A stretch of 57,968 nucleotides of DNA, filler included, from Dugesia japonica (lineage: Eukaryota), in the NCBI GenBank assembly GCA_001938525.1. It is 5 parts of 5 records of this genome, joined end to end, with 100 filler letters (N's around TTAATTAATTAA, not from the genome) between each part and the next. Parts side by side here need not be neighbours in the genome. Positions count along the whole stretch, not along the records: positions 18,497 to 35,403 come from MQRL01589739.1; 4 more parts are not named here. One strand, 5' to 3'. The notes beneath the pieces are model-generated. The model was not told the DNA's origin. It did not search any database and saw nothing but the letters and a program-made list of their open reading frames with translations. Position 1 is the stretch's first letter. Each line of letters begins with the position of its first letter. Position numbers and translations under genes: made by a program. Positions 18,914 through 49,809 of the stretch are shown piece by piece.

Positions 18914-19594
18914 CTAAATTTTTATATTTAGAAAAACACGATTAAGCATGTCAATTTTTACTTTTTTGAATTCTTCAACATAATGATTTAAATTAACATT
19001 AACATCTAAAGATATTTCATAAGAACATGGTATATATATGCATCTATTTAAAATGGCTTCTTTTGCACTAGATACATATGTCCAGATAGGTAAATTACCA
19101 CACACAATAAATGGCATAGATTTGAGAGGAACCCTAGGCCCATGTTTAACTCCGACACGGAAAAATGGAGAGTTCTCTATTAATTGTTTGAAATAATCGG
19201 CGTTTTTTGCATCAAGTGTTACCTCTTCACCAATTCCTATTTGTTTGTTAATGAGATTATCGAAGCAAAATTCAGACTGCATATGAATTAGAGAAAATGA
19301 TTCAGTGTCTAGCCCAGCACTAAATATCTTCATGAAAAGGGACTTACCGGCATTAGATGCCCCATCAAGTAAGATACAAGTAGTTTTGCCGGATTGTAGC
19401 AATAATACAAGGCCAATTGCACAGATACGATAATGGAGGGGATTAGATGCTTCCGTAAAACCGAGATTGTGTTTTTGAATAAAATTATCAATAATGTGAA
19501 CAAATTGCTTATTAAAATAAAAATGATTATTACTAATAAAATCTTGCAAAAATTTAGAAAGCGGCTCATAAACGATAAATTTATTAAAATCCAT
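18914..19594 (-). CDS. SF3 helicase, parvovirus NS1 / papillomavirus E1-like helicase domain
   Basis: Walker A CILLDGASNAGKS, FCFDNLINK, Walker B IGIGEE, B' FKQL..RVGVKH, motif C PFIVCGN and Arg finger EAILNRC. Intact 226-aa frame. Confidence 0.88.
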   Translation of the reverse strand: MDFNKFIVYEPLSKFLQDFISNNHFYFNKQFVHIIDNFIQKHNLGFTEASNPLHYRICAIGLVLLLQSGKTTCILLDGASNAGKSLFMKIFSAGLDTESFSLIHMQSEFCFDNLINKQIGIGEEVTLDAKNADYFKQLIENSPFFRVGVKHGPRVPLKSMPFIVCGNLPIWTYVSSAKEAILNRCIYIPCSYEISLDVNVNLNHYVEEFKKVKIDMLNRVFLNIKI

Positions 19595-19905
19595 TAAATG
19601 ATGAATAAACTAAAAATTGTTTATTATGTAACTAAACTACAATTAATACAACAAAATTGGGCCAATCACTAGAGTCTAAATTAAAAACTATCGTCATATT
19701 TCTTGACATTAGAGTATATACTAAGTGAGAGTTGATTATGGCACTGGGGACACTATGCGTCCATATCCACGGGAAGATGTTGATTTCCATTGGTTTTTTG
19801 GAGCAGGTGAGTAGTACGTTCCTTTACTTGGCTCATCTGAAGTCTGTACGGATTGTCTAATTTCTTCTGCTTACGCTAAAAAATAAAATTTTAATTTTGT
19901 ACATA

Positions 19906-20979
19906 TTAATTATTATATATTACTGGAATAATATCCATTTTAAAGTATAATAAATCGTTTAAGTAATGAATTTGTAATCTCCTATCCAGAGCTTCTTTAG
20001 TACAATTTAAAATATCGTATGGGTATAGCATTGATACATCATTAGTACATATTATGCGTGGCATTCTTTTAGGTATGCGTGCAGTACTATATTTTATGTC
20101 TACCACACTATCGTATTCGCAATCGTATAAATGTATAAGCTCTGTTATAGGCCATTTACGAAAATCTATATCGTCTATTACAATGCCATTATTGTTTTCA
20201 GTAATTAAATTAAATGATTGCCTGTTTGTTATTAGTACCGGTTTTGTACAATGTGCTAAAGCAAATGAGGTTTTGCCAATACCTGATGCAACTACAAATA
20301 CATGTGTGATGTCATCATATACATAAAAAAATGGATGCTTAAATTTAGTGTATTGTGGTTGAATTATTTCACCATTTTCCGATTTAAGATTTTCTAAAAT
20401 ACACTTTTTTTGTGTTACATATGTGAATGGATCTTGTTTTTTAAGTAATTCAATGGCTTCATTCATATTATTACAATTAAGGATATTATTCCATGCCATT
20501 TTTATTATATTTAAGTTTACTAGGTGTGCTAAAACTAAAACGAAGACCTCCGTGAACTCTTGTAGTGGGTTTGGTCACATAATCTCGAATACNNNNNNNN
20601 NNNNNNNNNNNNNNNNNNNNNNNNNNNNNNNNNATTAATCTATTTCTGGCGACCGAAAAATGAACTGACTTCTTAAATTCAATATACAGTTGTAAATGGC
20701 GGAAGCCTGATACTGACATCTCTTCTTGACCGATGAGATACTGCAATCCACTTTGTTTAAACAGTTCTCAATATCGATCAACATTGTCATGATATTGCTT
20801 ATACGATAGTGATACATGCCAATTTCTATGGCGAGAGTTGGGGGAGCATTTAAATTGGAGAATTGATTGTATGTCTGGGTACACATTATTCGAGCAGTTT
20901 CATTTTCTGAGTCCAATTTTCTGTTGGTACTAGAATCAGTACCGTCTCTAGTTCGTCCAATAGATGACACATTTGACAA
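19906..20979 (-). pseudogene. rep: CRESS-DNA-virus Rep (HUH endonuclease + SF3 helicase), copy 1, disrupted
   Basis: Motif I-like RHRNWHVSL (~20805-20835), motif II GQEE..SGFRHLQLYIEF, motif III RDYVTKPTTR, Walker A (V)ASGIGKTS, Walker B GIVIDD, DIKYSTARIP, motif C IICTN and ALDRR. One TGA at ~20768 and frameshifts at ~20495 and ~20880. Confidence 0.92.
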
Positions 20980-21064
20980 CGGCGAAACACTTCGGATATT
21001 TTCGTCGGGGTTGTATAATGGGACCTAATGCTCTTTGACCTATAGCAAATTACATTCCAATAAA

Positions 21065-21298
21065 TTAATTTATTACGAATAAAATAATACTACTTGATAA
21101 TAATTCTTGTATGGTGTTGGTAACACTATGACTTCCCGATTGCTTGGATTCACATTTTGTAGAGTTGTGTCTGCGTCGCTTAACGGGGGTCATCATATTG
21201 GTTATGAATTGATTTTCCTGTAGAACATTGTTTTGTTGATATGGTGGTGTGCGTATTCTCTCTAATAATTCTGATATAAAATGCAAATGAGATAGCAT
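21065..21298 (-). CDS. Short ORF with NLS-like TPVKRRRH; possible first exon of Rep copy 1
   Basis: Directly upstream of Rep1 on the same strand. Rep2 has a comparable low-complexity N-terminus with TPPKR. A GT..AG ~52-nt intron candidate lies at ~21025-21076. Confidence 0.35.
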   Translation of the reverse strand: MLSHLHFISELLERIRTPPYQQNNVLQENQFITNMMTPVKRRRHNSTKCESKQSGSHSVTNTIQELLSSSIILFVIN

Positions 21299-21314
21299 AA
21301 AATTTCAGTTAAAA

Positions 21315-22488
21315 ATGAAACGATTTCTAAAAACTGGATTTAAGTATAACAGACTATTGGATGACGTGGTGCCTGAGAAGAAAATTAAATTCTCTAAAAA
21401 TCAATTCAAATACACCAAACTTAATAATGAAGGTGATTCACACAGAAGACCTGGTGTGCCTATAATTGATAAATCTAATGGACTGAGTAATATTATCGAA
21501 GAAAAACTTATCAATCCAATAACAAATAAAATGAATATTAATACACCCAATCGTAAATTTGTATCTAAATGGAGTGATAGAGCAAAAAATTTAATTCCAA
21601 AATACAAAGCTACTAAAAAATTTGCACACAACCAAGAAGCTAATTTCTACACTGGTAATCATGTAGCATACGAGGGTGAATTTTTGTGGACCTGGCACAC
21701 GAATGGAATGGAGAGTAGATGAAAACAAGAAACCACTGCCTGTTAACAGTATAGACGAAGCGTGTTTAGCACATGATATAGATTATTCATCGAAAAAATT
21801 AACTGACAGACATGAGTCAGATTTGCGATTATTAGAGAATTTAGATTATATTGATGATGATAATCCAAAATTAACTTTAGAAAAGGAATTTGTTAGAAAA
21901 GTATTTCAATTAAAAATAATTGCTGAAAAACCGTTTTATATTTATAAAAAATGGCAAGAGGTTAAACACAATACTTCTTTCTGGGATTTCTTATTAGATT
22001 ATGTATTAAACAATGTTTTTAATTATTATTATGATCAATTTTTTGATAAAAATGGTAATAAGTTTAACCAGCTTATAGAAAAACAACATTTACAGACTAA
22101 AAGGGAGGAATTGTGGAATAATTACTCTCCAATGTCTCTAATAAGCAATTTCTTAATTAAATTATTTATGAAATATATTTATCCACATATAAAGGGGTTT
22201 ATGTTTTGGGTATTTGGAAAAAAAGAAGAGCATGATTTATTAAATAAACCGATGCATATTAAAGATACATTTGTGGGTTTTATAACTAAAAATATTAAGA
22301 ATGTGACTTTTTTGATCCCAGACATTAAAAAACGGAATATTGAATTTCTGAAAGTAACTCGTTGTTACACCAAATTCATTTTCGAGATTTTCGTTAATCA
22401 CTTTCCTTTTACACAAATATACTTCTGGGAAATTTGTTTTTATAATATTAATAGCCTCATTTTTATTATTTGCGTTGAGAGCATTTGA
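21315..22488 (+). CDS. Viral protein with parvovirus VP1u/adintovirus-type phospholipase A2 domain (frameshift at ~21676)
   Basis: NFCGPGT (Ca-binding loop) ... PVNSIDEACLAHDIDY (catalytic HD, DxxxxxHDxxY) ... RHESDLRLL. The basic N-terminal ORF 21315-21722 joins through one frameshift. Confidence 0.88.
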
Positions 22489-23099
22489 CCAAGCATTTTT
22501 TTTAGTTTTTGTTGGTTTAATATCATCATCAAAGCAATTAATACTTGGTAATCCGTATGAAACGGGCAATGTGCCAGTCATTCGTGTTTGGATTTTCGAA
22601 CAATACAATATCACAAATTTTTTGTCTTCTTTTGGCACTGGTTTCACGAACGGCACGCCCAACAAATCTTTCGCCCGATTGAAAGAAACTGCATTTTTGA
22701 ACTCACAATAGGCCTGTATATGTTTGTAACCGCCATCAAACACTGAAAATATATAACATATGTAATTATACTCATTACATACCTTAAATATTTACCTTCT
22801 TTCTGATATAAAATGTATTTGCAATTGGTTTTCCATAAGTTCACAAAATACTCTTCCTTTGTTGTAAATTTTCCCAACGGAAAGTTAAACGTGTAATTGT
22901 GGTGCCGTTTATTTTCTACATCTGGCACATTTGTGGTAGATTTAGCTGGGATTTCATCAGAATGTATTCTTTTGGGTGGTGTAGAGCTGCCATCACCAAT
23001 ATCCACATTGACTCTCTTTGTGGTGGAAGGATTACTTGTAGTAGATCCTCTAGATGACTTTATCGAGTTTTCATCATTTTTGTTGTCAAGGTCAGCCAT
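22240..23099 (-). CDS. rep: CRESS Rep copy 2 (spliced: exons 23099-22796 and 22742-22240), HUH domain intact, helicase absent
   Basis: RHHNYTFNF (I), YQKE|VFDGGYKHIQAYCEFK (II, after removing the 53-nt intron), LYCSKIQTR (III), then AWSNALN..EAINIIK..ENL aligning to Rep1. Similarity stops just before Walker A. Confidence 0.85.
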
Positions 23100-23114
23100 A
23101 TATTGTAGTGTTGA

Positions 23115-23567
23115 TTGAATATAGTGCCATTGAATATGGATGATAATTATCCATATTTTAATAATAGAAAAAGAATGGAATTTAAAATTATGAAAGAATA
23201 TTATCTAGCTGATAATGATTATGAAAAGAGGGATCAAAATATAATCGATAAATGGGGTTATTCGTACAATAGATATTATGATGCTTTTATATATGTAGGT
23301 AATAAAGATAATGAATTACCTAAGAAATTTTCTACTTCCAGAAAATTATTATCGAGATGGAAATTGGTTAATAAANATTATCCTAATGACCCCACAGAGG
23401 ATTTTTTTGATACTATTTATAATACAAAATATATTAATTACGCTAATGATAATGTACATCAAAGTATATTCTCCGGTGCAACTGGTATTAATATGAGAGA
23501 AATGTTTGGTATTAAAAAAGGTCTGGATTATTTATTTCCGAATGAAAATTATCGGTTCTTCTTTTAA
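23115..23567 (+). CDS. Orphan Y/N/D-rich ORF of the virus-like island (possible structural protein fragment)
   Basis: 150-aa open frame (first ATG at 23136) in very AT-rich DNA, divergent from Rep2. No recognisable motif. Confidence 0.45.
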   Translation: MNIVPLNMDDNYPYFNNRKRMEFKIMKEYYLADNDYEKRDQNIIDKWGYSYNRYYDAFIYVGNKDNELPKKFSTSRKLLSRWKLVNKXYPNDPTEDFFDTIYNTKYINYANDNVHQSIFSGATGINMREMFGIKKGLDYLFPNENYRFFF

Positions 23568-36461: not shown

Positions 36462-36908
36462 TCAAATTGAATCAGTCAAAATTGAAAATTCAATTTTGAC
36501 TAATAAATTAAAAAATATTGGCGAATAATTTCTATTGTTATTCAAATTAAAATTATAATTAATAGAATTATTTAAAATATTTAATTCATTGTTATTAAAT
36601 ATAACGTTTTTAATTAATTTATCAATATTCATTTCTTTACTTCTAGTTCTCTCTAAATATTTTATAAAACTATTCTTATCAGGTGAATAATACAATGTTT
36701 TTAATAATATAATAGATGATTTCAAGAATATTATATATCTATGATATATAGTTGATCTAATTGAATAATTATTCTCATTAAAATATTGTTTATTATAAAA
36801 ATCTAATAAATCTTTAATATTTAATTTATTTAATTCTTCTTTACTTGTTTTAAGCAAATAAATATGAAATATTCTATTATAGACTTCATTAAATGGTAAT
36901 TTACTCAT
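36462..36908 (-). CDS. Orphan ORF downstream of pPolB (Polinton/adintovirus accessory gene candidate)
   Basis: 148-aa open frame with AAAAATG start, on the same strand as pPolB and with similar composition. Overlaps the convergent ORF 36313-36528. Confidence 0.5.
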   Translation of the reverse strand: MSKLPFNEVYNRIFHIYLLKTSKEELNKLNIKDLLDFYNKQYFNENNYSIRSTIYHRYIIFLKSSIILLKTLYYSPDKNSFIKYLERTRSKEMNIDKLIKNVIFNNNELNILNNSINYNFNLNNNRNYSPIFFNLLVKIEFSILTDSI

Positions 36909-37091
36909 TTTTAAAATTATTTTATTTATATTAAATAATAAAGTAATCTATTTATAGAACTGTATGGCGCGCCGTAATTTTCTATATTTATAGAAACTAA
37001 TAAAAATTTTATAAAAAGTAAGCTTAATAAAAGAAAAGTAATATTTTGATTTAAATAATCATTAAATTTTATTTAAATTCTTTTTATGAAC

Positions 37092-40000
37092 TTAATTTCT
37101 ATAACCAAAAGGTAATGTTGTAATTCCATCATCTAAAATAATTCTTTTATCATCAAATGGATCTAAAGCAATTTTTTTCTCTTCAATTAAATAGATATCG
37201 TGATAATTCGACATTAATCTAAAATTATTCGAAAAAATTGTTAAACTTTTATTTAAACAATCTTCATAATCCTTTGTGTTCATTTTCTTTTGTGAAACTA
37301 CAGTTATTCCTTTTAATTTTATTACTTGTTTTAAATTATCTTTTTCGTAAGAATAGCATTTAGATTTTAAAAATAATGCTTTAGTTATAAAATCTTTCCC
37401 TTCTAATTCATCTTTAAATTTACATAAATCCGTTGGATGAATATATTCATTAAATTTACTAACTTCTTCTATTGTTGAATTAATCGGGACAACTATTTCT
37501 AAAAATATCGAATCACAATCAGTATATATAATTTTCCAATCATTTATTCTTTGATCAATACAATCGTAAATAAATTGATACATTATTAATTTCGATAATT
37601 CTANNNNNNNNNNNNNNNNNNNNNNNNNNNNNNNNNNNNNNNNNNNNNNNNNNAATTATTCGAAAAAATTGTTAAACTTTTATTTAAACAATCTTCATAA
37701 TCCTTTGTGTTCATTTTCTTTTGTGAAGCTTCATTTATTCCTTTTAATTTTATTACTTGTTTTAAATTATTTTTTTCGTAAGAATAGCATTTAGATTTTA
37801 AAAATAGTGCTTCAGTTATAAAATCTTTCCCTTCTAATTCATCTTTAAATTTACATAAATNCGTTGGATGTATATATTCATTAAATTTACTAACTTCTTC
37901 TTCTATTGTTGAATTAATCGGGACAACTATTTCTAAAAATATCGAATCACAATCAGTATAGTGAATTTTCCAATCATTTATTCTTTGATCAATACAATCG
38001 TAAATAAATTGATACATTATTAATTTCGATAATTCTAATATAGTAAATCCAATAAAATTNAATTTATCGTGTAAAACTTTATTTCTTAATAAATGTACAG
38101 CAACAACATCTTTACTAAATATTTTTTCCGATTTAAAGTTAGGTTTGGAAACATGACTTTTATAAGTCGTATAATCATAAACTATTTCAATATTTTGTCT
38201 ATTTCTTACATTTTCTAATGTTTTTCCATAAAAGCATTATTCATTAATTTATAGAACGTATCTCCAAATTTATCTCGATTTCTTTTAGCAATATTTCTTT
38301 CCTCAATATTAAAATCAATATAACACTTTAACCAATTCGATTTATAATAAATTAATTTTCTATGAATTTTATTTATTTTTATTCCGTGATCAACATACCA
38401 ATCTAACATTCTTCCTTCAATAACATAATTGAATTTATTATTTTGATTTAAAATTAATTTTTCATTTGGTTTATAATTATGAGGCTTAAAGTTATTTTGA
38501 TATTCGCCGAATTGATTTTCAGTCGGTTTATATTTTTCAGGGAGAAAAGGATAATATATATTTTTAATTTCATTTGGATATTCTAAATCAACTTCATAAA
38601 CAAAACCGGGATTATAATAATAATTAACGATTGTATTATTTCTGGGATTATATGCATTAGAAAGAGTTTTTTCGTAAATTAAATTATCATCCCAAATCAT
38701 TTTTCCAGCTGGTAATTCTTGAATCATTGCTGATGGATATAAACTATTCGCATCGTAATATAATAAATAATTTTCTTTATAATTATTTAATTCTTCAATT
38801 GTATTAACGTTTCTAGTTAAAATATTTTTATAAGCTTCANNNNNNNNNNNNNNNNNNNNNNNNNNNNNNNNNNNNNNNNNNNNNGAAGAAACCCCACCTC
38901 TTACTCCTTTTTCAAAAAATAATAATTTATCATAAGAATCTTCTTTATAATGAATTAATTTTACTTTTGTATATTTCAATCCAGCCAACCAAATTAATCC
39001 AGGCGTTGAATAACAATAAGAGGGATCGATTCCGTATTTTTCATAACATTCTTTTCTAAATTTCTCGAATAGATCTGTTAATATTAAAACGTCGATTTTT
39101 AAATATTTCATCGTATAATCGTACATATTTCTACAATTTAATTCATTCCAATTATCTTGAGATTTTTGATAATCTTCAACAGAAATATTCGATTGTTTTA
39201 ATTTTGAATAAAATTTTTCATGTTCAGGTAATTGAGTTTCTCTCATTATATTAATTATATCATCAAAACTAGAATTATATTTAATATATTCGTATGGATA
39301 AATTCCTTTCATATTTCCTAAATTATTAGCTGTTAGAAATTTACAATCTTCAATTTTTAAAGTTGAACCCATAAATTCTAAACTATATGGCATACAAAAT
39401 CGAAATGTATCTAAAATTCTAATATAACCAATTTGTAATGAAATATATTCTTCACCAGTTTTAGTTAATCGTTTTATTTTACAGGATTTAACATATTCAG
39501 ATTTAAGTAAATCTTTAAATAATTAATGAATATCATATTTTGAACCATTATAAAAATACATTGGAACAAAATTAACTTTTTTAGCTTTTAAATTACATTG
39601 CTTATGAGCTGCTCCTCTAAATTTTCCATTTAAATGATCGTGATCTCTTACTTTACAATTAATATATTGTTTATTATTATGAATAAACCTTCTTGTAGTT
39701 AAATTTAATTCCTTTTCACAATAACATCTTGTTGAATTAATAAAATTAATTTCATCTTTTTCGGTCATTTCTATTGGATAATTAGTTTTTAATAAATTTT
39801 TAAAATTAACATCAAGTTCTTCAAAAAATTTTACAAATTCTGTTACTGCTGTTTCTCCGAAGAATTCATAATATCTTGATTCTACTAATTCTGGATAATC
39901 AGAAATGATTTGAATGCCAAATCACATTGCTTCTTGTTTAAATAATTTATTACTAGTAGAATCTTGATTAATTTTATTAAATGCTTCAAAATTTGAATAA

Positions 40001-41754
40001 ATTCTAAATGGAACTTTATTTTTATAATGAAATTTATCAAATTCAAAATATTTTTTAATTGGGAATGTATTTTCGGCAGGACTATTTCCTCTACAATCCA
40101 AAGCAAAATGTTTATTTAATGTTTCAATTGATCTAAAAGAGCATAAACAATTTAAACATGGAAATGCTCTATTATTTGCTGAATACCTTAAAAAAGTTGA
40201 AACATCTTTACATAAAACATAGTGGCCTTTTAAATTTTCTTCAGAATAATTATTTGAATAGNNNNNNNNNNNNNNNNNNNNNNNNNNNNNNNNNNNNNNN
40301 NNNNNNNNNNNNNNNNNNNNNNNNNNNNNNNNNNNNNNNNNNNNNNNNNNNNNNNNNNNNNNNNNNNNNNNNNNNNNNNNNNNNNNNNNNNNNNNNNNNN
40401 NNNNNNNNNNNNNNNNNNNNNNNNNNNNNNNNNNNNNNNNNNNNNNNNNNNNNNNNNNNNNNNNNNNNNNNTATGATTCTGGATTTAGAGGATTAATTTC
40501 ATTTGGATGTAATGAAGCCAAAATTGACCAAATAAAACAATAATCATCATTATTTTCAATATTTAGTAAATTAGTTTCAATAAATGGTAATTTAATATAC
40601 GAACCGACAAAAGANNNNNNNNNNNNNNNNNNNNNNNNNNNNNNNNNNNNNNNNNNNNNNNNNNTTTCAAAAACATTTATTTTTAAAGAAGGATTTATTG
40701 AACAAAATACTTTGATATCTTTTAAAGATAAAGGAAATTTTAAATTATTATTTAAATTTATTTCATTAAAATAATTATANTATGATTCTGGATTTAGAGG
40801 ATTAATTTCATTTGGATGTAATGAAGCCAAAATTGACCAAATAAAACAATAATCATCATTATTTTCAATATTTAGTAAATTAGTTTCAATAAATGGTAAT
40901 TTAATATACGAACCGACAAAAGAAGTTCTATATTCACAAATTGTTAAAGAAATTTGTACTAAACTAGTAATATTTAAACCACTTCCTCTTGCTTGAAAAT
41001 CGTCCATTTGAGTTCTAAATTGATTATAAATTTCATTTAAATTATTTTCAATATCATTTAATGATGCAACTACTTTTGCTTGATGAGAAATCCCATAATC
41101 AAAAATTGTTTCATTAGGTGTTAAATATTTGCAAACTAGATTAATTCTCATTTTAAAAGCATTGATATTTGGAAAATAATAATTAGTTAATAATTCTTTG
41201 AAAATATTTAAATAATCAATTGGGATTTCTCTTCTGTTATTATTTTCATCAAATACTTTCGTAATTGCAACTAATTCGTTTCTATTAAATAAATTAAATC
41301 TTTGTAAACATTTAATGTTTAAAAAATTGATTAATTATTGATTATTTTCTAAAGCTGAAAATCTTTGAATATTTTGAATTTGTCTTAATTTATTTAAATG
41401 CTCTCTTCCGTTTATATGTGTATTTAAATTCTATTGATTTCGAAAATTTCAATTACAGATTTCACAATGAAATTGATTATTTTGATCATTTTGATTATTT
41501 TGATTATTTTGAAAATTTAAAAGATTATTTCTATGTTGATTAGAAGAAGTTTCATGTCCTCTTAAACCACCTAAATTTCTAAAAGAAACGTTACAAATTG
41601 AACAATAGAATTGATTATATTGAATATTATCATTTTGAATTAAAAGAGCATTTCTATGTCGAATTGAAGAAGTCTCATTCCCTCTTAAACCCTGAATACA
41701 TCTTAAATGAGTATTACATAAATTACAATATAATTGGTTAATTTGTTGAGCCAT
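37092..41754 (-). pseudogene. Polinton/Maverick-adintovirus-type protein-primed DNA polymerase B with N-terminal zinc-finger repeats, disrupted
   Basis: QARGSG..SYIKLP..NIENNDDYCFIWSILASLHP, KVRDHDHLNGKFRGAAHKQCNL, FYNGSKYDIH (exo II), KGIYPYEY, YLKIDVLILTDLFEKFR (exo III), GVRGGVS, YYDANSLYPSAM (motif A), FYKLMNNA (motif B), YTDCDS (motif C) and KLKG. Multiple stops and frameshifts; the C-terminal ~450 bp is duplicated across a gap. Confidence 0.93.
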
Positions 41755-41785
41755 AACTTTATTTTTTTTTTATAAAATATTTTAT

Positions 41786-42331
41786 TTATTTATTTTTCAT
41801 TATTTCATTTACTTTATTTTTTATTTCTTCTTCAATTAAATTATTTAATTCTTTTCCTTGTTCCTTAAACAAAAAGATCCAAAGATATTCCCCGGTAATC
41901 ATCCAAATTTCATTTTTATCTTTAAAATTTTTGGGAATTTGATCTTTTAAACAACCGTAAACAACTTGATAATTTGGGTATAAAAATTTAAATTTGTGTA
42001 ATTTTCGATAACTATAATTATCTGTATTTTTATTAAATGGTGCATATTTTAATTCGAACGCTATTTTTCTTTTTTCGCATTTAAAGTCAATTCCTATAGA
42101 TTGTTTTTCAAAACCCAAATATTCCAATATTTCTTTATAAATCACACTTATTCTTGTTTTAATATAAGAAATTGTTGCAAAAATATATTGATGATCCTCA
42201 GTAAAACTACCCATATAGGAATCATTAGGTTTTTTATTTAAATAATCGTATTTAGAAAGTGGTGTTAAATTTTTATTAATTATTTCTCTTATTCTTAATC
42301 TTAAATTGCTATCATTAATTATATTTTGCAT
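41786..42331 (-). CDS. PD-(D/E)xK restriction-endonuclease-like protein
   Basis: E(ILEYLG)..GIDF......IAFELK..NTDN....KL.KFK..PNY..VYG..ITGEYLW.FLF gives E..D-x(10)-ExK catalytic spacing. Intact 181 aa, ending 31 bp before the pPolB ATG. Confidence 0.7.
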   Translation of the reverse strand: MQNIINDSNLRLRIREIINKNLTPLSKYDYLNKKPNDSYMGSFTEDHQYIFATISYIKTRISVIYKEILEYLGFEKQSIGIDFKCEKRKIAFELKYAPFNKNTDNYSYRKLHKFKFLYPNYQVVYGCLKDQIPKNFKDKNEIWMITGEYLWIFLFKEQGKELNNLIEEEIKNKVNEIMKNK

Positions 42332-42859
42332 TCTTTTTTCTTTAAAATCATTGTTAATTTAAAATAAATTTTAAAAATTTAATTTTATTAATTTAAATTT
42401 TTATTCTTTTCCTTTTATATTGTTTATTTGGGAATTTACTAAATCACTTTAAGGGAATTATTATTATAAAAATGGTGATTTAACTGCGGAAAAATGGAAA
42501 AAAATTTCATTAATATAAACATGAAAACTATAGATTAGAAAAATTAATCCCTTCATTAACCCATTATTAAATTTCCATACATAGAAATGATTCGAGTAAT
42601 AAAAATGATAAACCAATAATGCGAAAAACTCAGAAAAAAGGTAACTGGAAGAAATCGGAAATAACCCAAAATTACATTATTGGATTTGGGAAATATTTAG
42701 AGTAATTAAATAAATTTCATGAATTTTATTCATTTAATTAATTGACAATTTTACTCAAAAGATGCAAAAAAGCCTCAAAAGTAGCCATTTAGGAACTAGA
42801 AGAATGCCTCCCAAAAATCAGGGTGGGTAAGGTGGGTGGTACCCTCAACTCCCCATTAC

Positions 42860-46676: not shown

Positions 46677-49809
<3,133 letters not shown>

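Follow-up and report, generated by a model that had tools for sequence, protein, structure and literature searches.

A conserved putative Rep intron with a predicted mirtron-shaped hairpin in virus-like elements of the planarian Dugesia japonica

Introns in the Rep gene are described for the Genomoviridae, for mastre-, becurto-, capula- and grabloviruses and for porcine circovirus, in which they are removed to make the full Rep, and the accessible part of the same source gives one origin to the gemini- and genomovirus intron and a second to that of the porcine circoviruses (10.1101/687855). In the accessible part of a study of cruciviruses, Rep splicing was predicted in 36 genomes, the helicase motifs being mostly located in the second exon and the splice sites resembling those of maize streak virus (PMC7468197). 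The locus analyzed here has in common with the gemini-, genomo- and circovirus Reps a spliceosomal-type intron in a CRESS Rep, and with the crucivirus Reps a splicing that is predicted. It differs from the former by the presence of at least four intron sites (called A, B, C and E) in one genome, three of them with hairpins, and by the position of site A between motifs I and II, whereas no hairpin is mentioned in the accessible parts of 10.1101/687855 or, for cruciviruses, of PMC7468197.

Mirtrons are short introns which, after splicing and debranching, give a pre-miRNA hairpin ending in the acceptor AG, and Dicer prefers 2-nt 3' overhangs (PMC4518039, accessible part). Arms conserved above the loop are a signature of pre-miRNAs (accessible parts of PMC4518039 and 10.1101/125997). 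Like the Drosophila mirtrons (miR-1003), the intron described below is short, and its predicted hairpin is shaped like a pre-miRNA and terminates in the acceptor AG; the Drosophila mirtrons reside in host genes and their small RNAs were sequenced, whereas the present intron, of about 80% A+T, belongs to a virus-like element and is known from its predicted fold. The viral mirtron of Rasschaert et al. is said to be that of Marek's disease herpesvirus, a large dsDNA virus, whereas here the predicted hairpin lies inside an essential coding gene of a Rep-encoding element of ssDNA type. Splicing-derived viral miRNA precursors have seldom been recognized (Rasschaert et al. 2016, via the accessible part of PMC5483433), and section 7 of a 2015 review, in its accessible part, assigned no mirtron to viruses (PMC4378190).

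The window, that is the whole stretch of Dugesia japonica DNA that was analyzed (57,968 nucleotides, filler included), contains on contig C589739 an E1-like SF3 helicase, two Rep genes (Rep1 and Rep2) and a PLA2-like ORF (Table 1). In the planarian element PEVE, a circovirus-like Rep is paired with a papillomavirus-E1-like helicase. PEVE and PIVE are virus-like, Rep-encoding planarian elements with parvovirus-NS-like sequences (accessible parts of PMC3198968 and PMC6186406). The window and its relatives also possess a Rep and a downstream PPV_E1_C helicase, and thus resemble PEVE and PIVE in gene content; no named PEVE record was among the database matches. In the relatives, Rep is followed by the second helicase and other ORFs are carried by the opposite strand.

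Table 1. Location of the Rep-element features in the window (predicted introns are hypothetical features deduced from the DNA).
Feature	Position	Strand	Remarks
Second SF3 helicase	18914..19609	-	Pfam PPV_E1_C, E 5.6e-7; downstream of Rep in both lineages
Plain GT-AG intron-like stretch, end of Rep1	19876..19923	-	48 nt; no hairpin in the stretch offset by one base
Rep1 (HUH plus SF3 helicase), decayed	19906..20826	-	5' limit approximate
Predicted site-E intron of Rep1	21040..21093	-	54 nt; predicted hairpin with AG overhang
ORF of Rep1-type element	21291..21722	+	divergent from Rep1
PLA2-like ORF	21667..22488	+	PF08398, E 3.5e-8
Rep2 exon with motifs II and III	22296..22742	-	homology to relatives stops directly ahead of Walker A; no helicase
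Predicted site-A intron of Rep2	22743..22795	-	GT-AG insert of 53 nt in phase 1; mirtron-shaped, the predicted hairpin running from end to end and leaving AG as a 2-nt 3' overhang
Rep2 exon with HUH motif I	22796..23118	-	cut on its 5' side
ORF	23115..23567	+	directly after the PLA2-like ORF in relative L073

The HUH motifs I to III were found in the two exons of Rep2, and the Viral_Rep matches of the window pieces fell below the curated cut-off, those of eight relatives being above it. Upstream, the Rep2 relatives possess an additional acceptor and exon, and they have TTG-type codons opposite the window ATG at 23099. Since these relatives also reach Walker A, the window Rep2 is truncated and no full Rep would come from it. 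A second intron located before Walker A was considered and rejected, the relatives continuing unbroken at the place where the window copy is cut. The two ORFs flanking the Rep2 piece (about 22296-23118) are adjacent in L073, indicating that this piece is an insertion into a Rep1-type element; the SF3 helicase present in the relatives of its lineage is absent here, and the part of the PLA2-like ORF common to Rep1-type relatives ends near 22270, the remainder covering the inserted piece. The left junction (22296) is crossed by contigs of run X9 and the right one (23118) by contigs of runs X1, X5 and X9, and L058 repeats the right Rep2 junction at 94% identity. Conspicuous terminal inverted repeats were not noticed on either side of the window element. 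Rep1 is decayed, as it contains a stop in frame, one frameshift and a gap of N, and has no intron at sites A and B.

Several other reading frames were observed in these elements. A long ORF on the minus strand (about 20635-21304), read in a frame shifted from that of Rep, overlaps the 5' half of this gene, starts with MLSH and holds a CxxC; it is also present in L032, L060, L030, L034 and the L074-L086 lineage, is open in copies which lack E and B or would splice them, and resembles an overprinted accessory gene. In L153 (2604-5915, plus strand, 1104 aa) and L148 (219-3597, minus strand), large ORFs are divergent from Rep2-type genes; they end in a Thr-rich tail, gave no Pfam family in the two that were scanned and are candidate capsid genes. 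In L152 (C348710), three Reps of different lineages and an E1-like helicase are in tandem within 7 kb, perhaps as a cluster of viral remnants. Elsewhere in the window (36462-42358, minus strand), ORFs resemble by eye the protein-primed DNA polymerase region of a Polinton-type element.

The first-pass annotation had proposed a 53-nt spliceosomal intron inside the HUH domain of a CRESS Rep at site A. On the minus strand (22795..22743), this insert begins with GTAAAT, ends with TTTTCAG, has a G+C content of 19% and is located in the HUH domain of the Rep-like gene, between motif I and motif II. Thirty GT..AG pairs within the overlap of the reading frames are able to fuse the two frames of Rep2, and the pair first chosen leaves exactly 12 nt from the QKE codons to the Gly of motif II, the spacing found in 17/17 loci without intron at this place (those of the site-A-free loci whose spacing was resolved by the motif search). 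Among 153 database proteins, motif II was found by pattern in 66 and a spacer of 4-5 residues in 36 of these 66. Traces of an insert at site A were seen in the Logan proteins P0001-P0003 (56-60% identical), and in P0001 it is read through as 17 residues. A DNA search of the 854-Mb assembly gave 40 matches, and in all 20 that were retrieved first the insert was present at the same codon (GT in 19/20, AG in 20/20). In the Rep2 lineage as a whole, the insert or a remnant of it was found in 34/34 copies covering the site (32 whole, L053 without the donor and L046 without the body), a count which leaves out five Rep2-family loci with no coverage of site A. In L046 (285-300, minus strand), the body of the hairpin is gone and 16 nt remain with both splice ends. 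The 32 whole introns measure 52-57 nt, with a mode of 54 nt, and reading through is broken in 28 of them and stop-free in four, while only 2 of 40 flanking control windows of 54 nt contain a stop. The restored motif spacing and the broken read-through make it very likely that the insert is a spliceosomal intron, and on the sequence comparisons we consider it a highly probable one, placed at a conserved Rep codon; the first proposal was confirmed in position and borders and is supported as to type.

Among the 20 close copies, pairwise identity is high at the splice ends (donor 0.98, acceptor 0.96) and falls to 0.71 in the intron body, and the exon codon positions 1, 2 and 3 are identical at 0.89, 0.93 and 0.475, respectively. 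These codon-position values, together with the presence of the insert in all 20, suggest that the intron was already present while the copies diverged and that purifying selection acted on them meanwhile. The possibility that the 53 nt were a recent, non-spliced insertion, raised at the outset, is contradicted by the comparison of homologous Reps, in which the insert is old and conserved. The size had been likened to that of host tubulin introns of 48-56 nt: the two short tubulin introns of the window are 48 and 49 nt, and a wider sample gave 44-50 nt (n=10, one gene family), so that 53 nt falls just above a small sample. The tubulin intron at 49465-49512 (minus strand) has the 10-mer ATTACATATG in common with the site-A intron and no hairpin, a coincidence probably due to chance. 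As to the suggested adaptation of the virus to the splicing machinery of its host, sequence conservation supports a likely dependence of the Rep family on host splicing.

A Rep tree of 77 rows was built by a quick method, with root and clades not tested and with 14 loci shorter than 95 residues left out. In this quick tree, all 34 site-A rows fall in one clade (SH-aLRT 99) with one change, and Rep1 is placed in another clade, among lineages without site-A intron. The simplest reading is a single gain of the site-A intron along the Rep2 stem, in elements that would then have been active. The hypothesis that Rep1 had lost the site-A intron was rejected on account of this placement. Rep1 had initially been regarded as an intron-less paralog; it has indeed no intron at site A, yet it carries a predicted hairpin intron of its own (site E) and belongs to a separate lineage, so that this description was wrong. 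Of the intron gain or loss then suspected between the two Reps, the gain is retained and the loss in Rep1 is not.

The folding of the site-A intron of the window gave one end-to-end hairpin of -14.1 kcal/mol (z -4.44), a value equaled by 0/200 shuffles, in which the first G is paired to the third-last base, a C, and the terminal AG stays unpaired as a 2-nt 3' overhang. Over the 32 copies the median z is -3.55, with 27/32 below -2. When the 21-pair structure of the window fold was projected on the copies, 84% of the cells could pair, against 29-55% in slid registers, and 15 of the 21 pairs show changes on both sides; the shuffle control for this structure can be beaten by related sequences without structure, as kinship inflates it. 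RNAalifold recovered the outer 12 pairs alone, weakly. Pairing of the first 8 nt was 0.77 at offset 2 versus 0.41-0.55 at the other offsets, and this terminal pairing is in part a consequence of donors being rich in A and acceptors in T. Among the 20 close copies the upper stem is conserved and the loop is among the most variable parts. The commonest seed in a 22-nt register occurs in 12/32 copies and is thus not fixed in the lineage.

The same fold was searched for in controls and at other sites. No hairpin was detected in 10 host tubulin introns (one gene family), in 15 site-B introns or in 40 exon windows, and the upstream intron of the Rep2-type gene formed one in 1/15. A fixed shape test was passed by 25/32 site-A, 10/11 site-E and 5/8 site-C introns, compared with 0/15 at site B and 1/346 intron-like background strings; a net 2-nt overhang was present in 27/32 (A), 10/11 (E) and 6/8 (C). 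The transcribed strand folds better than its complement in 29/32 (A), 10/11 (E) and 7/8 (C) introns versus 198/346 in the background, and G-U pairs outnumber A-C pairs by 37:16 at site A and 23:3 at site E. This strand bias and the G-U excess point to a structure at the RNA level, and it is probable, on these folding results, that an RNA hairpin has been kept by selection.

The site-E intron was found in 11 copies, folds like that of site A (z -3.0), and 9 of its 20 consensus pairs are compensatory. In the upper stem of its 3' arm, TGGAAT is fixed in 11/11 copies. In 6/11, including the Rep1 of the window, this arm reads TGGAATGT, starting 20-21 nt from the end, the 8 nt with which planarian miR-1b (PMC7722302 file 8) and schistosome miR-1 (PMC2817716) begin. 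Several arms and registers were examined and a chance match is roughly estimated at about 1 in 5, so that the agreement with the miR-1 seed is to be taken as a hint. Inspection by eye of the 32 planarian miRNA rows in part 1 of 2 of PMC7722302 file 8 revealed none derived from these hairpins and no match to the site-A seed. The site-C intron belongs to a third Rep lineage and is located just before motif I; its single folds have z values of -5.7 to -6.8 in the five introns, out of 10, that the script extracted, and RNAalifold gave no consensus on nine site-C introns, their alignment being poorly registered. The site-B intron is plain (41-46 nt, 83-95% A+T, no hairpin) and occupies an AG|G site 12 nt downstream of site A in most close Rep1 relatives (L023-L034, L061, L066, L068, L070 and L094). 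Sites A and B form a near-intron pair between lineages. Site B is exactly absent from L060 and site E from L032, a precise presence or absence that is expected of removable introns. The simplest history of these introns would be separate gains, each in its own lineage. In two other Rep lineages no consistent hairpin intron was seen in the DNA examined. In a fourth Rep lineage (L036, L039, L042 and L101), a short plain intron seems to lie upstream of motif I, and no hairpin intron occurred in the DNA examined. A shared branch-point motif as cause of the conservation was rejected, the A, E and C introns fixing different motifs.

Transcripts and databases were also explored. The raw RNA runs gave 7 (X12), 2 (X15) and 0 (X11) partial reads, none of them over the site-A intron, the zero of X11 carrying no weight, and the spliced joint 22742/22796 was absent from the 8 runs examined of the 24 listed. 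No small-RNA label was borne by any of these 24 runs. Contigs of runs X1, X9 and X10, whose RNA or DNA origin is unrecorded, cross site A unspliced; runs X1 and X9 contain an allele with a 13-nt deletion near 22649, and the ATG at 23099 is absent from runs X1, X5 and X9. The Rfam search returned four chance-level matches (E 3.4-8.1), none on the introns. There were no relatives in the viral contig or metagenome contig collections, no match for a Rep among PDB sequences and none of the six searched motifs in 8 supplementary files of PMC5671611; the E1-like helicase had no match among the longer database proteins, which is weak evidence.

The shape of the site-A intron is compatible with a mirtron. 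Rep would be transcribed by host Pol II and the intron would then have to be excised by the spliceosome, as the read-through is broken before motif II. After debranching, the intron is predicted, with the support of compensatory changes, to fold so that its first G pairs three from the end and leaves the 2-nt AG overhang, and Dicer may cut from it a 3' arm RNA of about 21-23 nt with its seed in the conserved upper stem. The production of Rep would in this way be coupled to an output of small RNA. That the site-A intron is spliced out and then diced as a mirtron is slightly favored; that the obligatory splicing of Rep releases a pre-miRNA stands at an even chance, and whether a small RNA is made from the hairpin appears equally balanced. 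The wider proposal, in which a family of animal viruses of ssDNA type would have evolved Rep mirtrons at least three times, at three sites and with unrelated sequences, the one of the Rep1 lineage mimicking the miR-1 seed, is tentative and rather doubtful.

A full hairpin would hide the splice signals, and this counterpoint to a mirtron leads to the most serious of the other explanations, namely that the hairpin of a real intron regulates its own splicing by masking donor, branch point and acceptor, with little Rep and no small RNA as outcome. Donor and acceptor sites are indeed both covered by the stem, as is an ATTAC that resembles a branch point and lies some 20 nt before the end, the unspliced RNA gives no motif II, unspliced contigs alone were seen, and the strand bias agrees with any role at the RNA level. 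Such a control would however have no need for a 2-nt AG overhang, a length of 51-57 nt and a fixed upper-stem motif in three lineages, and the TGGAAT fixed at site E does not resemble the branch-point consensus. We regard this explanation as possible and on the unlikely side.

Less probable still is a palindrome devoid of function, left by an introner- or MITE-like insertion or by template switching during ssDNA replication. The AG on both sides of site A, as from a 2-nt target duplication, the occurrence of hairpins at three sites, the loss in L046 of the hairpin body between its ends, as hairpin-skipping would cause, and the folding of the opposite strand (z -3.4) are all in agreement with it. 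Against a common insertion, the inner parts of the A, E and C introns are no more alike than shuffles (0.38-0.40 versus 0.39-0.41), so that kinship is undetectable, and an upstream AG is missing at site C. Of the 15 matches obtained with a 35-place pattern, 8 are in Rep copies and the other 7 are without full hairpin (1/7 starts with GT), and at E < 0.01 a covariance model run on 174 kb of DNA matched site-A introns only. As for template switching, it should erase the G-U pairs and fixed mismatches, which are kept, and these observations render the palindrome improbable.

Replication origins of CRESS viruses are stem-loops, and the hairpin might be such an origin, nicked by Rep and lodged inside the intron. 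NANTATTAC is found in 8/32 site-A introns and TATTAC in 15/32, but NANTATTAC lies mostly in the stem whereas the loop is variable, so that site A does not show what a CRESS origin is recognized by, a DNA stem-loop whose loop carries a conserved nonanucleotide. The motif is moreover absent from the sense strand of E (0/11) and C (0/8), and as DNA the introns fold weakly (about -5 kcal/mol), neither strand being consistently favored, which makes an origin very improbable. Equally improbable is that coding sequence for some 18 residues was inserted here and has decayed in the majority of copies. The modal length of 54 nt, the four stop-free copies and the read-through of P0001 can be invoked for such an insertion, but it is at odds with the excess of broken copies over flanking windows, with ends that are nearly invariant at every codon position and with the exact motif spacing recovered in its absence.

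Rep introns were already known, and viral mirtrons have been described but are regarded as rare (PMC5483433). The literature searched, the PEVE paper, the Repbase PIVE entry and several supplements lying outside its scope, yielded no account of a CRESS Rep with hairpin or mirtron introns, and the conserved mirtron-shaped hairpin predicted in a CRESS Rep intron appears to be new. In one animal genome, the Rep lineages have at least four intron sites, an exact presence or absence between close relatives and three predicted hairpin introns that are mirtron-shaped and show no kinship. If these hairpins are diced, small viruses of ssDNA type are able to produce microRNAs without spending coding capacity and might imitate a host seed. 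If the reading of all three introns as mirtrons were true, the synthesis of Rep would also yield a viral microRNA, and among CRESS systems these elements would be the first whose microRNAs derive from splicing, and would offer a natural series for intron gain, precise loss and the birth of mirtrons.
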